Source: an uncultured Chromatiaceae bacterium (lineage in GTDB: Bacteria > Pseudomonadota > Gammaproteobacteria > JAADHS01). Taken from it: a stretch of DNA of 64,000 bases. The stretch covers positions 4,380-68,379 of the forward strand of contig CAYQVF010000009.1 in assembly GCA_964421045.1 (NCBI GenBank). Reading direction: 5' to 3'. Each line of letters opens with the position of its first letter. The first letter of the stretch is position 1. Made by a program: the position numbers and the translations under genes. Positions 52,772 to 64,000 of the stretch are shown here, piece by piece. The notes beneath the pieces are model-generated. The model made no database searches and was not told where the DNA came from. It saw only the letters and a list, made by a program, of their open reading frames with translations.

Positions 52772-54186
<1,415 letters not shown>

Positions 54187-55344: not shown

Positions 55345-56055
55345 ATGCCTATTTACTGGTTACCTGAAGCCGATAATCCTGAGTTTTTTCCTGATCCTGA
55401 AAAAGCCGAAATAGATCCAAATGGCCTGCTTGCTATGGGGGGCGCGCTATCAGAACAACGTTTAATCGCCGCTTATAAACAAGGTATTTTCCCTTGGTAC
55501 AGTGCAGGACAACCTATTTTATGGTGGTCACCCAACCCCCGTGCCGTATTGTTCCCTGATCAAATAAAAATTTCCCGGAGTCTAAAAAAAACCATAAAAA
55601 AAGGACATTTTCATATCCGTTTTGATACCGAATTCAAAAAAGTGATACAACACTGTGCAGCACCTCGTGCAGAAAGTCCGGGCACCTGGATTATGCCGGA
55701 AATGGCATCTGCATATTGTCACTTACATGAAAAAGGAATAGCTCACTGCGTAGAAACCTGGTTAGATGGACGCCTGGTGGGAGGGTTATACGGTATCGCT
55801 ATCGGCCAGGTCTTTTATGGGGAATCCATGTTTAGCCTCGCAACAGATGCCTCCAAGGTCGCGTTGGTTCAGCTTGCAAAACAGCTTCAGAAATGGCAAT
55901 TTCAACTGATTGATTGTCAAGTCAGCTCTGCCCATCTCACCCGTTTGGGTGCCATTGATATACCCCGCCTTGAATTCACCCAGCTTTTAAAAAAACTTTG
56001 CTCCCAATCTTCTACCGCCCCTCTAAACTGGACAGTTAAATCGAATCCTTGTTAA
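55345..56055 (+). CDS. aat: Leucyl/phenylalanyl-tRNA--protein transferase
   Basis: 236 aa with MPIYWLPEADNPEFFPDP...GIFPWYSAGQPILWWSPNPRAVLFPD; ...GESMFS. The motifs are typical of Aat. Confidence 0.88.
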   Translation: MPIYWLPEADNPEFFPDPEKAEIDPNGLLAMGGALSEQRLIAAYKQGIFPWYSAGQPILWWSPNPRAVLFPDQIKISRSLKKTIKKGHFHIRFDTEFKKVIQHCAAPRAESPGTWIMPEMASAYCHLHEKGIAHCVETWLDGRLVGGLYGIAIGQVFYGESMFSLATDASKVALVQLAKQLQKWQFQLIDCQVSSAHLTRLGAIDIPRLEFTQLLKKLCSQSSTAPLNWTVKSNPC

Positions 56056-57070
56056 AAGCCTTCATACGAGCATCTTGTTTCGTAATTTTACCGAGCTTCA
56101 CCAGCTCTTTAAGGTTTTGATCTAGAGTTTGCATACCAATCGACTGACCCGTCTGGATCGCTGAATACATTTGTGGAATTTTGTTTTCTCGAATCAGGTT
56201 ACGTATTGCAGGTGTACCCATCATAATTTCGTGCGCCGCAATTCGCCCACCCCCTACCTTTTTAATTAAAGTTTGAGAAATAACAGCCTGCAGTGACTCT
56301 GATAACATCGAGCGCACCATTTCTTTTTCAGCGGCAGGAAACACGTCAATGATACGATCCACTGTTTTTGCTGCTGAGTTGGTATGGAGTGTTCCAAATA
56401 CAACATGGCCGGTTTCAGCTGCAGTGAGTGCCAAGCCAATGGTCTCTGGATCCCGCATTTCGCCAACAAGAATAATATCTGGATCTTCACGCAAGGCAGA
56501 TCGCAGTGCGTTGGTAAAACCGTGGGTATCCCGATGCACTTCCCGTTGGTTAATCAGGCATTTTTTACTTTGATGGACAAATTCAATCGGGTCTTCTACC
56601 GTTAAAATATGACCAAATTCATTTTCATTTTTGTAATCAAGCATCGCCGCCAAGGTCGTAGATTTACCTGAACCCGTGGGTCCGGTAACCAAAATCAAAC
56701 CGCGTGGTTTATCGGTAATCTCCTTAAAAATATCAGGTGCACCTAGGTCTTCCAACGTCAAAATAGTCGAAGGAATGGTTCGAAAAACACCACCAACCCC
56801 CCGATTTTGATTGAACACATTGACACGAAACCGTGCCAAGCCTTGTATTTCAAAAGAAAAATCGGTTTCAAACTGCTCTTCAAACTCTTTCCGCTGTTTA
56901 TCGCTCATGATGTCATACAACATGCCGTGTACCGCTTTATTGTCCAGCGCAGGCACATTGACTCGCCTGATGTCCCCATCAACGCGAATCATCGGCGGCA
57001 AACCCGCTGACAAATGTAAATCTGAAGCTGCATTTTTTACGCTAAAAGCCAATAAATCAGCTACATCCAT
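56036..57070 (-). CDS. pilT: Type IV pilus twitching-motility ATPase PilT
   Basis: 344 aa with Walker A GPTGSGKST and the Asp box. It has the His box (HLVFGTLHTNSAAKTVDRIID) and the typical PilT N-terminus MDVADLLAFSVKN. Confidence 0.8.
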   Translation of the reverse strand: MDVADLLAFSVKNAASDLHLSAGLPPMIRVDGDIRRVNVPALDNKAVHGMLYDIMSDKQRKEFEEQFETDFSFEIQGLARFRVNVFNQNRGVGGVFRTIPSTILTLEDLGAPDIFKEITDKPRGLILVTGPTGSGKSTTLAAMLDYKNENEFGHILTVEDPIEFVHQSKKCLINQREVHRDTHGFTNALRSALREDPDIILVGEMRDPETIGLALTAAETGHVVFGTLHTNSAAKTVDRIIDVFPAAEKEMVRSMLSESLQAVISQTLIKKVGGGRIAAHEIMMGTPAIRNLIRENKIPQMYSAIQTGQSIGMQTLDQNLKELVKLGKITKQDARMKAFNKDSI

Positions 57071-57277: not shown

Positions 57278-57913
57278 TTATCCAACTATGTCCAATTCAC
57301 GGCGTCTAAAGTTCACACCCAGCTTATTAGCCATATTTTCACAGGCTTGGATATCGACTCCTTGCAAACCATTGATGGCGGTAACACTTACATCGGGCAC
57401 ATATTGTTTTGCTAACCTGACGAACTCCAGCATGGCTTGATAGGAACCATCAAGCTTGGGTCGGCAATGTTGATTGTAAAGGGTTTCATTATGCGCATTC
57501 ATTGAGACTGATAGACTGTCGATTAAGCCGTGCATTTCTGATGTCACGTCACGGGCGTGTACCAAATTCGCCAAACCATCCGAATTCAAACGTATTTTTG
57601 CGCCTTTTAGCTTGAGTGCTGTCGCTATTTCAATCATCGTATCCCAGCGTAGTGTGGTTTCTCCTAAGCCACAAAATACGATTTCGTTGTAACGACCCGG
57701 ATCGCCTGTTGCGGTGAGAATTTCTTCAGCGCTGGGCTCACGGCGAAGACGAAGATCAAGACCTTGCACCTCCCAGGTGCCATTAAATTTAGGACAAAAT
57801 GCGCAACGTAATGTGCATTGATAAGTGATGTTTAAATATCGATTGCCGTGCAAAGTATAAGCTAAGGTTTCTTGCTGACTTGATATCGCTTTTTCAGTAT
57901 TTTTTTTATTCAT
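57278..57913 (-). CDS. Small radical-SAM protein (CxxxCxxC), function unknown
   Basis: 211 aa with the motif QCTLRCAFCPK (C-x3-C-x2-C). It has a glycine-rich segment (IVFCGLGETTL) consistent with SAM binding. It overlaps the upstream 258-aa gene by 4 nt. Confidence 0.6.
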   Translation of the reverse strand: MNKKNTEKAISSQQETLAYTLHGNRYLNITYQCTLRCAFCPKFNGTWEVQGLDLRLRREPSAEEILTATGDPGRYNEIVFCGLGETTLRWDTMIEIATALKLKGAKIRLNSDGLANLVHARDVTSEMHGLIDSLSVSMNAHNETLYNQHCRPKLDGSYQAMLEFVRLAKQYVPDVSVTAINGLQGVDIQACENMANKLGVNFRRRELDIVG

Positions 57914-58686
57914 TTTTGTCGTAATCGCAACTGCACTAATTTGGTTTGATACCGCGAAATATCTTTAGCTGCACGTTTATAAACTGATCGCAAATGCGAT
58001 TTTAAGTGTGGTGTAACTTGCTTTGTTGGTAGTGCTTTCAACGCCGCAAACAACGCCAAGGCATAAATCGCTTCATCTTGAGATAAATATATTTCTCGCT
58101 CCACTTTTGGCCCTGAACATTTACCGCAGCCCCCCCTAAAATGATACGCGGTATTAGCAAATAACACACCAAACCCCAATCTAATCGCAAGCACCTCCAT
58201 CGCATAACCATATGCAGCCTGACCACCAGGGGGTTCAGTTTTGGCCATTCCACCTAAGTAAAATGCTAAGACACTGGCATAGTGCGCGATAAGCGTATCT
58301 GGTGTGCCGACTTGCCCGGTATGGTAGGGAATCACTGGCAGCGTTATTTTTTCATTCGATTGTGGCGTTGTTGATAGCTCGGAACTCAGAATTGAAGCAA
58401 CACTGGCCGTATGATTCAAGCCATCCTGAAAACCGTGTTGATCTACTAATTGACAAGGCCAATGACTAAGCCCCGCATATTTTTGTACTTGTCGAAAAAT
58501 CAGCTCCGCCATGGCTGCAGCACTGTCGGCATTGCCGGGGAAAAATTCGTTACTCGGCACCACCAACACCGACTCCTGATTGATAACATTGGCATCAAAC
58601 TCGGCTAAAGACCAGTCAAAAACATCGAAAACCCAAACAGCAGTGTCCTCATCGACAACAGGCCTGCTTTGTAAAAATTCCAGCAT
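57910..58686 (-). CDS. Hypothetical protein (258 aa), translationally coupled to the radical-SAM gene
   Basis: A long ORF with no family I recognise. It contains HFRGGCGKCSGP near residue 180. Confidence 0.45.
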   Translation of the reverse strand: MLEFLQSRPVVDEDTAVWVFDVFDWSLAEFDANVINQESVLVVPSNEFFPGNADSAAAMAELIFRQVQKYAGLSHWPCQLVDQHGFQDGLNHTASVASILSSELSTTPQSNEKITLPVIPYHTGQVGTPDTLIAHYASVLAFYLGGMAKTEPPGGQAAYGYAMEVLAIRLGFGVLFANTAYHFRGGCGKCSGPKVEREIYLSQDEAIYALALFAALKALPTKQVTPHLKSHLRSVYKRAAKDISRYQTKLVQLRLRQK

Positions 58687-58900
58687 ATTGTGTTCTTTTT
58701 TTCTGTATAATAAGTCAGATTTCGGAATTCAAATCTACGTGTGTTGAATAAACGGCAAAATGAAATAATATATCGTACTCATATTACGTACTTATGTCCG
58801 TTTTTTCATGTCGAACGGTAAAAAACCATGCAAATACAATCATGACTTAACTCTATCTTAAAATCTATTTATCAGAAAGCACTTAAATCTAATCCAGAAT

Positions 58901-59269
58901 ATGGCAAAACAATTATTTAAGCTACGAAACGTTCCTGATGATGAAGCCCATGAAGTTCGCACGCTATTGGCAGAACATGATATCGATACATACGAAACCA
59001 CATCGGGATTTTGGGGAACCGCAGTCCCTGCCATCTGGCTTAGAGACGAAGCTCAACTTGAAGCAGCAAAACAATTAATCGAGACTTACCAACAAAAGCG
59101 ATCCACTACAGCGCGTTTGCACTATGAACAACAGTGTAAAGAGGGAACAGCAAGATCAACCCTGGATATTATAAAAGAAAACCCCAGTAAATACGGACTT
59201 TATATTTTAGGAGTTCTTGCCGTTCTTTATTTTAGTTTCGTCCCCTTATTTAACTTACTATACAAGTAA
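58901..59269 (+). CDS. Hypothetical protein with C-terminal TM helix
   Basis: 122 aa with a soluble N-terminal domain and a hydrophobic C-terminus (LYILGVLAVLYFSFVPLF). Confidence 0.4.
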   Translation: MAKQLFKLRNVPDDEAHEVRTLLAEHDIDTYETTSGFWGTAVPAIWLRDEAQLEAAKQLIETYQQKRSTTARLHYEQQCKEGTARSTLDIIKENPSKYGLYILGVLAVLYFSFVPLFNLLYK

Positions 59270-59288
59270 AAACCACAAGAAGAAAAAC

Positions 59289-59708
59289 GTGCTGACATTA
59301 TTCCTTATTATTCACTTCATCGGGCTATGTATTGGTGTGGGTGCATCCCTCTGCAATGCCCTTTTAAATCTATACCTGACACAGCAAAACAAGGGAGATA
59401 TTCCACAAGAAACCAGAAGCATTATAACATCATATTTGTTTCATCTTGGTATCATAGGGCTGGCTCTGCTCGTCATATCCGGAATAGTACTTATGGTCTT
59501 TTACCACCCTTTCGTCACTCTGTCTTTTTTATTTTGGCTAAAACTATTTGTAGTTAGCATTTTAATTGCCTTGATTTACCAGGCAAAACAACTCTTTAAA
59601 GAACCCAACCCAAGCCATCGTACAGTGACACAACTGACACGTATCCGTCTATTTAACCCCGCCCTGTCTCTCTCTATTGTTATTTTGGCTGTATTAGCTT
59701 TTCAATAA
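59289..59708 (+). CDS. Hypothetical integral membrane protein (about 4 TM)
   Basis: Probable GTG start at 59289 after AAGAAG. It is about 139 aa and hydrophobic throughout. Confidence 0.4.
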   Translation: MLTLFLIIHFIGLCIGVGASLCNALLNLYLTQQNKGDIPQETRSIITSYLFHLGIIGLALLVISGIVLMVFYHPFVTLSFLFWLKLFVVSILIALIYQAKQLFKEPNPSHRTVTQLTRIRLFNPALSLSIVILAVLAFQ

Positions 59709-62736: not shown

Positions 62737-63060
62737 TTAGATACTGAAACTTTCACCGCACCCACATGTATCTTTCACATTAGGGTTGTTAAATTTAAAG
62801 CCTTCATTCAAACCTTCACGACCGTAATCAAGCTCGGTACCGTCAAGATAGAGCAAGCTTTTTGCATCCACAATTACTTTAACGCCCTGATCTTCAAAAA
62901 CGGAATCGTCTGTTTCAATTTCATTGACAAACTCCAACACATAGGCCATACCCGAACAACCCGTTGTTTTAACGGCCAAGCGCACACCCACACCATGACC
63001 TCTGGCCTCCAGGAAGGACTTGACTCGATCTGCCGCCGCCACACTCATAGTTATCGCCAT
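62737..63060 (-). CDS. iscA: Iron-binding A-type carrier IscA
   Basis: About 107 aa and collinear with E. coli IscA ([12 protein letters not shown]...[14 protein letters not shown]). Its start lies 2 nt after the iscS stop. Confidence 0.88.
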
Positions 63061-63062
63061 GC

Positions 63063-64000
63063 TTAGTGCGCTGCCCATTTAACTTTTGAGAGGTCTACGC
63101 CGTCTTTATACATATCCCATAACGGTGACAATTCACGTAATTTTGCAACCCGTTCGCGAATTAAATTGATGATGTAATCCACTTCTTCAGTTGTTGTAAA
63201 ACGACCTAGGGTAAAACGCAATGAGCTATGCGCAAGTTCATCACTACGGCCAATAGCACGCAGTACATAAGAGGGCTCCAGACTGGCAGAAGTACAAGCT
63301 GAACCCGACGACAGCGCAATATCCTTTAATGCCATAATTAATGACTCACCTTCAACATAGTTGAAGCTGATATTCAGATTGCCGGCGACTCGCTGCTCTA
63401 AATCACCATTGACATAAATTTCTTCCATATCGCTTAAACCATTATAGAGCCTATCCCTGAGAGATTTTAGACGAATATTTTCCGTTGCCATTTCTTCTTT
63501 TGCAATGCGAAAAGCTTCGCCCATACCCACAATTTGATGGGTCGCCAAAGTCCCTGAACGCATTCCTCGTTCATGTCCACCACCATGTGTTTGTGCTTCA
63601 ATCCGTACGCGCGGTTTGCGTCGAACATAAAGTGCACCGATACCCTTAGGTCCGTAGATTTTATGTGCAGAAAAAGACATTAAATCAACTTTCATCTGCT
63701 GCAAGTTGATGTCTACTTTTCCTGCGCTTTGTGCGGCATCAACATGAAACAAGATACCCCGTTCCCTGGCCATTTCGCCTATTTTAGTAATGTCCTGGAT
63801 CACACCAATTTCATTATTAACATGCATAATAGAGATCAATATTGTATCGTCCCTGATCGCCGCAACCAGTTTTTCAAGATCTAGCAGACCATTAGTTTCA
63901 GGATCAAGATAACTCACATCGTAGCCTTCTCGCTCCAACTGACGATAGCAATCGAGCACCGCTTTATGCTCAGTTTTTAAAGTGATGAGGTGCCGTCCTT
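63063..64000 (-). CDS. iscS: Cysteine desulfurase IscS (C-terminal ~310 codons; the gene continues past the window end)
   Basis: It has a PLP site ([17 protein letters not shown]), the active-site loop ([21 protein letters not shown]) and a C-terminal ...VKWAAH. Confidence 0.92.

Follow-up and report, generated by a model that had tools for sequence, protein, structure and literature searches.

An overlapping gene pair of a TIGR04038 radical-SAM protein and a putative degenerate zincin-like protein, restricted to one small clade of uncultured Gammaproteobacteria

The gene pair and its radical-SAM member

The 64,000-nucleotide (nt) stretch of DNA analysed here (the window), from an uncultured Chromatiaceae bacterium, carries on its minus strand two overlapping genes, the first encoding a protein of 258 amino acids (aa) and the second a radical S-adenosylmethionine (SAM) protein of 211 aa (Table 1). 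A preceding sequence-only reading had described these two open reading frames (ORFs) with their 4-nt overlap, the C-x3-C-x2-C motif at residues 33–40 of the second protein, a CGKC pair in the first, and the position of both genes between pilT and a divergent pair of small genes, all of which were found as described. From these features, an enzyme acting on a partner encoded next door had been proposed. Our results indicate that the pair is not a conserved enzyme-and-partner system and that it is restricted to one small clade of uncultured Gammaproteobacteria.

The two genes share an ATGA in which the stop codon of the upstream gene overlaps the start codon of the downstream one. Such 4-nt overlaps are the commonest type in bacterial operons and are unremarkable alone. 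No clear Shine-Dalgarno sequence was read ahead of the second ATG, which fits coupling by termination and reinitiation; translation of the radical-SAM gene may be coupled in this way to that of the 258-aa gene. A simple scan of the divergent intergenic region on both strands did not call any sigma-70-like site, and when promoters and terminators were looked for in the surroundings of the pair, the only matches were below background and on the wrong strand.

The 211-aa protein matches TIGR04038 over its full length and is an unexceptional member of this family, which NCBIfam names 'TatD family nuclease-associated radical SAM protein' and which was one of the candidates put forward beforehand. 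Its residues 16–208 matched positions 1–192 of the 192-position profile with 244.6 bits against a cutoff of 129.7, and Pfam recognised the generic PF04055 domain alone. The second-best NCBIfam match was the sister family TIGR04100 ('rSAM_pair_X'), alignable over its full length with 158 bits, below the cutoff of 262. A word-indexed search recovered 882 homologues at E ≤ 1e-10, and, as the best 120 of them measured 200–237 aa (about 205–215 aa being usual in the family), the short length is the family norm; the description of the protein as much shorter than typical was thus right for the radical-SAM superfamily and wrong for its own family. The protein resembles TIGR04038 in its full-length match, its length class and its CxxxCxxC motif, in which C33, C37 and C40 were invariant over 31 homologues (alignment A2). 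In addition, it retains every family-invariant residue common to the orthologues linked to ubiU-ubiV that are described below (for example, P0093).

By analogy with the superfamily, the enzyme would bind one [4Fe-4S] cluster through C33, C37 and C40 and cleave SAM to yield a 5'-deoxyadenosyl radical, with no auxiliary domain involved. No SPASM/twitch or peptide-recognition domain was found, the SPASM maturase models giving 16–23 bits against cutoffs of 340–625, and a sequence search of the PDB returned no usable match for either protein of the pair. The fold of the 211-aa protein does not give its substrate class, and the literature search on TIGR04038 and TatD-associated radical-SAM proteins did not find a biochemical function for the family.

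Other minimal radical-SAM cores taken for comparison were PflA, the NifB core, BlsE, viperin and QueE, from which the window protein differs. The glycyl-radical activase PflA (TIGR02493) scored 17.6 bits against a cutoff of 231.75; the neighbouring protein is not a glycyl-radical enzyme, nor is one encoded nearby. The score for viperin was 21.3 bits against 180. QueE, suggested beforehand as another candidate, was not supported: its model gave no match and no queuosine gene was found nearby.

Table 1. Position of the gene pair, its motifs and neighbouring genes in the window, followed by features at other genomic loci (L numbers).
Feature	Position	Strand	Remarks
258-aa protein gene	57910-58686	minus	ATG start; upstream gene of the pair
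211-aa radical-SAM gene	57278-57913	minus	ATG start; TIGR04038; minimal core domain only; downstream gene of the pair
ATGA stop/start overlap	57910-57913	minus	Read from the sequence; fits translational coupling
CTLRCAFC (C33-T-L-R-C37-A-F-C40)	57794-57817	minus	Residues 33-40 of the radical-SAM protein, read from the sequence; [4Fe-4S]/SAM cluster-binding motif
C187-G-K-C190	58117-58128	minus	CxxC inside a glycine-rich loop of the 258-aa protein; family consensus GGCGSC
S138-V-L-A-F142	58261-58275	minus	Residues 138-142 of the 258-aa protein; aligns with HExxH of relatives; putative vestigial zincin active-site helix
Divergent intergenic region	58687-58900		Presumed promoter of the pair; no FNR-type box
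pilT	56036-57070	minus	3' of the radical-SAM gene
DUF6164 gene	58901-59269	plus	PF19661, 128.9 bits; divergent from the pair
DUF6164 and small membrane-protein genes	58901-59708	plus	Overlapping each other
PilZ-domain ORF	53854-54186	plus	110 aa; PF07238, E 1.3e-8; GTG start
Thioredoxin-reductase-like gene	52907-53857		Its end is overlapped by the PilZ-domain ORF
isc genes	62737-64000	minus	iscS (runs off the window end), iscA, hscB, hscA, fdx, iscX
iscA	62737-63078	minus	Overlaps the iscS stop
rSAM-(mnmL/ytqA)-ubiU-ubiV operons	L083:5001-8687; L088-L166, e.g. L095:6001-7632, L108:6001-8700		Examples; radical-SAM gene (rSAM) first
DUF6164 and membrane-protein genes in relatives	L001:4984-5790; L085:2287-3112; L086:305-1105		Divergent from the pair
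HI0933-like flavoprotein	L086:2973-4106		Directly 3' of the radical-SAM gene
HI0933-like flavoprotein	L168:3782-4972		Directly 5' of a 258-aa protein homologue, Motiliproteus sp. SC1-56
Small haem-c-type protein	L095:5328-5843; L103:5063-5545; 14 other loci		Just 5' of the FNR box and radical-SAM gene

The family of the 258-aa protein

No Pfam or NCBIfam model matched the 258-aa protein, even at E up to 10, yet it belongs to a large, genuine and conserved family. The word-indexed search returned 47 clusters of it, and an exhaustive profile search recovered 1,800 representatives at the 50% identity level with E ≤ 0.001, including 258 with E ≤ 1e-30. In species-representative genomes, 298 loci were confirmed by tblastn, nearly all of them labelled Gammaproteobacteria, with hosts that include Sedimenticola, Thiodiazotropha, Granulosicoccaceae, symbionts of tubeworms and clams, and also Motiliproteus, Thalassotalea and Pseudoalteromonas.

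The structure predicted for the protein (predicted local distance difference test, pLDDT, 84.1; predicted template modelling score, pTM, 0.82) was confident except for residues 93–112 and the loop 181–200, the CxxC loop being poorly modelled (pLDDT 55–69), and a Foldseek search of this model against the PDB gave nothing at E < 0.75. Sequence comparison pointed to the zincins: the distant relatives P0264 and P0213 read ATLAHELAHYL where the window protein reads AHYASVLAFYL, and two distant members of the family gave sub-threshold SprT-like Pfam matches. In an alignment of 186 members, 49 carried HExxH on the helix, 120 the CxxC loop, 17 neither and none both. By position, histidine was found at 138 in 98 of the 186 and at 142 in 91, and glutamate at 139 in 57. 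Common to both branches were an acidic residue at E164 (E or D; 185/186), N178 (184/186) and R197 (160/186). C187 and C190 were invariant in the alignment of homologues of the 258-aa protein (A1), and the window protein's own clade has lost both histidines too, with S138 and F142 at these positions.

Judged from these alignments, the family is zincin-like, and the 258-aa protein would belong to a branch in which the catalytic HExxH was replaced by a pair of cysteines. Since S-V-L-A-F stands in place of HExxH, it cannot be a zincin-type protease, and its CxxC loop is probably a metal-binding or redox site. Compared with the SprT-like proteins (PF10263), the M48 peptidases (BepA, HtpX, ZMPSTE24) and the minigluzincins (proabylysin, selecase), the window protein differs in lacking HExxH, and its CxxC loop is in turn absent from the HExxH-bearing members.

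The loop, with its GGCGSC consensus, also looked similar to the 'CCGSCS motif' of a protein with which TIGR04100 pairs. No such NCBIfam match was obtained at E up to 10 for the window protein, its C-terminal half or three relatives, no mention of it was found in the papers searched, and the idea was dropped.

Within the HExxH branch (P0261, P0264, P0281 and P0283), some members carry additional domains: P0261 and P0264 end in C-terminal TPR repeats, and P0281 is fused to a methyltransferase domain of class I. Such architectures hint that this presumably active protease branch takes part in protein interactions; among the domain fusions of the family, no functional lead was found for the window protein.

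Gene order around both families

Co-conservation was scored as gene linkage at loci, through tblastn searches and hidden Markov model (HMM) counts. Among the 80 best genomic loci of the 258-aa family detected by tblastn, the radical-SAM gene was present in L001 only, which encodes an 86%-identical relative. The radical-SAM HMM, run on six-frame translations, found the gene at 1 of the 69 informative loci, in which the sequence extends 1 kb or more beyond the partner gene on its downstream side, and no other ORF of at least 100 aa with a CxxxCxxC motif was seen within 3 kb of the partner in these translations. The flanking genes varied by lineage, the most frequent gene at any one position being seen in no more than 7 of 77 loci, and in the cultured Motiliproteus and Pseudoalteromonas luteoviolacea the neighbours were unrelated, with no radical-SAM gene nearby. 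From the other side, 80 metagenomic loci of the radical-SAM gene (56–85% identity) showed the partner only in L087 (85% identical), which lies on the same contig as L085, and radical-SAM orthologues at 69%, 64% and 60% identity had unrelated neighbours. With the pairing found in 1/69 and 1/80 loci, the 258-aa protein is not a co-conserved partner, an outcome that the sequence-only reading had itself named as refuting its proposal; taken as a whole, its interpretation was supported in part.

An HI0933-like flavoprotein gene was found directly beside members of both families, on the 3' side of the radical-SAM gene in L086 and on the 5' side of a partner homologue in Motiliproteus sp. SC1-56, which may be a coincidence.

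The radical-SAM orthologues have a different and recurrent context. At 56–66% identity, the next gene on the same strand, usually 0–30 nt on, was ubiU followed by ubiV, or mnmL/ytqA followed by both. These products were identified above the curated equivalog cutoffs, with 541 versus 440 bits for UbiU (NF047963), 415 versus 275 for UbiV (NF047965) and 365 versus 180 for MnmL/YtqA (TIGR01212). At least one of the three genes was present in 27 of the 50 loci with at least 1.5 kb downstream (UbiU in 26, UbiV in 24, MnmL in 15), and after de-replication at 80% identity, ubiUV-type linkage was kept in 10 of 23 clusters. Of the Pfam families assigned to the 125 genes immediately beside the orthologues, Radical_SAM_C/Radical_SAM (13) was the commonest, followed by Peptidase_U32 and NMO (9 each).

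In addition, 28 of the 33 linked loci have an FNR-type box, TTGAT-N4-ATCAA with at most one mismatch, ahead of the radical-SAM start at a distance of 17–103 nt, most often near −70; shuffling gave an expectation of 0.2, and the box was present in 3 of 21 unlinked loci. This box ahead of the operons matches the reported control of ubiUV by FNR, for which predicted sites lie upstream of ubiU or ubiT (PMC6747719, PMC11707229). In contrast to these orthologues, which follow the box and are themselves followed directly by genuine ubiU-ubiV genes, the window pair has neither ubiUV nor the box and is followed by pilT: ubiU, ubiV and mnmL were not found in the whole 64 kb, nor was TTGAT-N4-ATCAA found with up to two mismatches upstream of either gene. 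In a neighbour-joining tree of the radical-SAM genes, those linked to ubiUV were spread over most major branches, and those linked to the 258-aa gene formed one small nested clade.

The O2-independent ubiquinone pathway has been described as UbiT, UbiU and UbiV, without a radical-SAM component (PMC6747719, PMC11707229). A search of the open-access literature found nothing that joins radical SAM to ubiU or ubiV, the relevant results being limited to a review of U32 oxidases. As far as the searchable literature shows, neither the occurrence of TIGR04038 genes with ubiUV and FNR boxes nor the HExxH/CxxC split of the partner family has been reported.

In 16 of 55 loci, the gene that immediately precedes the FNR box and the radical-SAM gene encodes a protein of about 160–200 aa, which had no NCBIfam match, starts with a transmembrane helix and has a haem-c-type CxxCH motif in its C-terminal part. 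A cupin gene of the WbuC family (TIGR04366; 9/55 loci) often comes before it.

As for the other neighbours of the pair, the small membrane protein encoded next to DUF6164 measures about 139–163 aa across the clade and gave a weak HemJ-like match (TIGR00701, E 1.8e-4). The window shares with L001, L085 and L086 a conserved four-gene block of DUF6164, membrane protein, partner and radical-SAM genes, of which the first two do not adjoin the partner gene outside the clade. In the window and in L001, the pair lies about 1 kb from an isc cluster, iscX-fdx-hscA-hscB-iscA-iscS. In the window, iscU does not lie between iscS and iscA, and IscU, on which HscA and HscB normally act, may be encoded elsewhere. 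The PilZ-domain ORF listed in Table 1 lies a few kb from pilT.

Explanations for the pairing

We consider it likely that two genes of independent evolutionary origin were brought together here in an operon restricted to one lineage, and that the pair is not a conserved enzyme-and-partner system. Because its orthologue in related Gammaproteobacteria typically leads an FNR-box-preceded rSAM-(mnmL/ytqA)-ubiU-ubiV operon, the radical-SAM enzyme would most likely have, as judged from this context, an anoxia-induced role tied to UbiU and UbiV, the hydroxylases of O2-independent ubiquinone synthesis. In a single small clade of uncultured Gammaproteobacteria (vent or marine), the gene would have moved behind that of a catalytically degenerate zincin-like protein, which seems to have lost HExxH and carries the invariant CxxC loop. 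After this move, the radical-SAM gene would have lost its ubiUV linkage and its FNR box, and it would then be expressed from the promoter of the 258-aa gene, co-transcribed and ATGA-coupled with it. The direction of the rearrangement, from the ubiUV context to that of the 258-aa gene, is suggested by the nested position of the partner-linked genes in the tree.

Several points weigh against this explanation. The pair is kept in all five members of the clade (the window, L001, L081, L085/L087 and L086), and the tight overlap can be counted as kept in four of them: ATGA is found in the window, L085 and L086, in L001 the choice of start codon decides between an overlap of GTGA and a gap of 2 nt, and L081 has a spacer of 28 nt. 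The pair also persists regardless of the gene downstream, which is pilT in the window and L001, a Metallophos gene in L085, an HI0933-like gene in L086 and a peptidase S11 gene in L081, and such persistence could reflect selection for co-expression. Furthermore, the invariant glycine-rich cysteine loop of the partner would be a chemically plausible target for a radical, the tree carries no support values, and the association with ubiUV is drawn from gene order and a consensus motif. Identities within the clade are 73–86% for the partner and 80–93% for the radical-SAM protein. The retention of the pair there is what chiefly argues for some functional link in this clade; it can equally be explained by recent common ancestry together with the difficulty of separating overlapping genes.

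If that link were direct, the minimal enzyme could serve as activase or maturase of the 258-aa protein, for instance by modifying its glycine-rich CxxC loop; this could be confined to the present clade, or it could be general, the two genes lying apart in other genomes. The linkage counts given above make this unlikely, as do the existence of roughly 120 CxxC-branch representatives, the lack of an adjacent radical-SAM gene in the near relatives examined, the PflA score and the missing SPASM or peptide-recognition domain. Moreover, as the radical-SAM protein keeps all family-invariant residues and nests within the tree of the ubiUV-linked orthologues, it shows no sign of a new specificity. Also rather unlikely, in our view, is an indirect link in which both proteins serve one process of the clade, such as Fe-S, thiol-redox or quinone metabolism at low oxygen, and are co-expressed without contact. 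Both proteins are cysteine-dependent and probably metal-binding, the four-gene block is kept in four clade members and the operon is close to the isc cluster in two, but this last neighbourhood is not kept in L085 or L086, no neighbour is common to the two families outside the clade, and they have no regulatory motif in common. The name of TIGR04038 finally raises an option to which we give very little credit: a TatD-type nuclease or hydrolase would be the partner of the enzyme, and the 258-aa protein would replace it here as a different metal-hydrolase-like partner. The apparent descent of this protein from a metallohydrolase-like (zincin) fold would fit; however, it has no zincin catalytic motif, in the window no TatD gene adjoins the pair or was found among ten other ORFs scanned, and TatD_DNase was not among the families seen at least twice in the 125 immediate neighbours of the orthologues, about 80 in number and gammaproteobacterial.

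Under the preferred explanation, of a lineage-restricted operon, the pair is made of known kinds, a curated but functionally uncharacterised radical-SAM family and a seemingly degenerate zincin-like protein, and is not a new system. The pair itself would be a local operon rearrangement that does not alter views of radical-SAM enzymes. The unmodelled family of the 258-aa protein, in turn, splits cleanly into an HExxH and a CxxC branch, as if its active site had been replaced and not merely lost. A bolder and more tentative possibility is that the TIGR04038 enzyme is an unrecognised, FNR-controlled accessory of the UbiU/UbiV pathway in many environmental Gammaproteobacteria, which in the window clade was detached from both ubiUV and FNR and became translationally coupled to a CxxC pseudo-zincin, perhaps a newly acquired partner or substrate.

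In conclusion, the link to ubiUV is more interesting than the pair itself. A radical-SAM family named after TatD nucleases heads ubiUV operons in about half of the informative gammaproteobacterial loci, which suggests that the family name is misleading for the ubiUV-linked branch of TIGR04038, and this context makes the enzyme a testable candidate for an extra factor in the anaerobic ubiquinone pathway.
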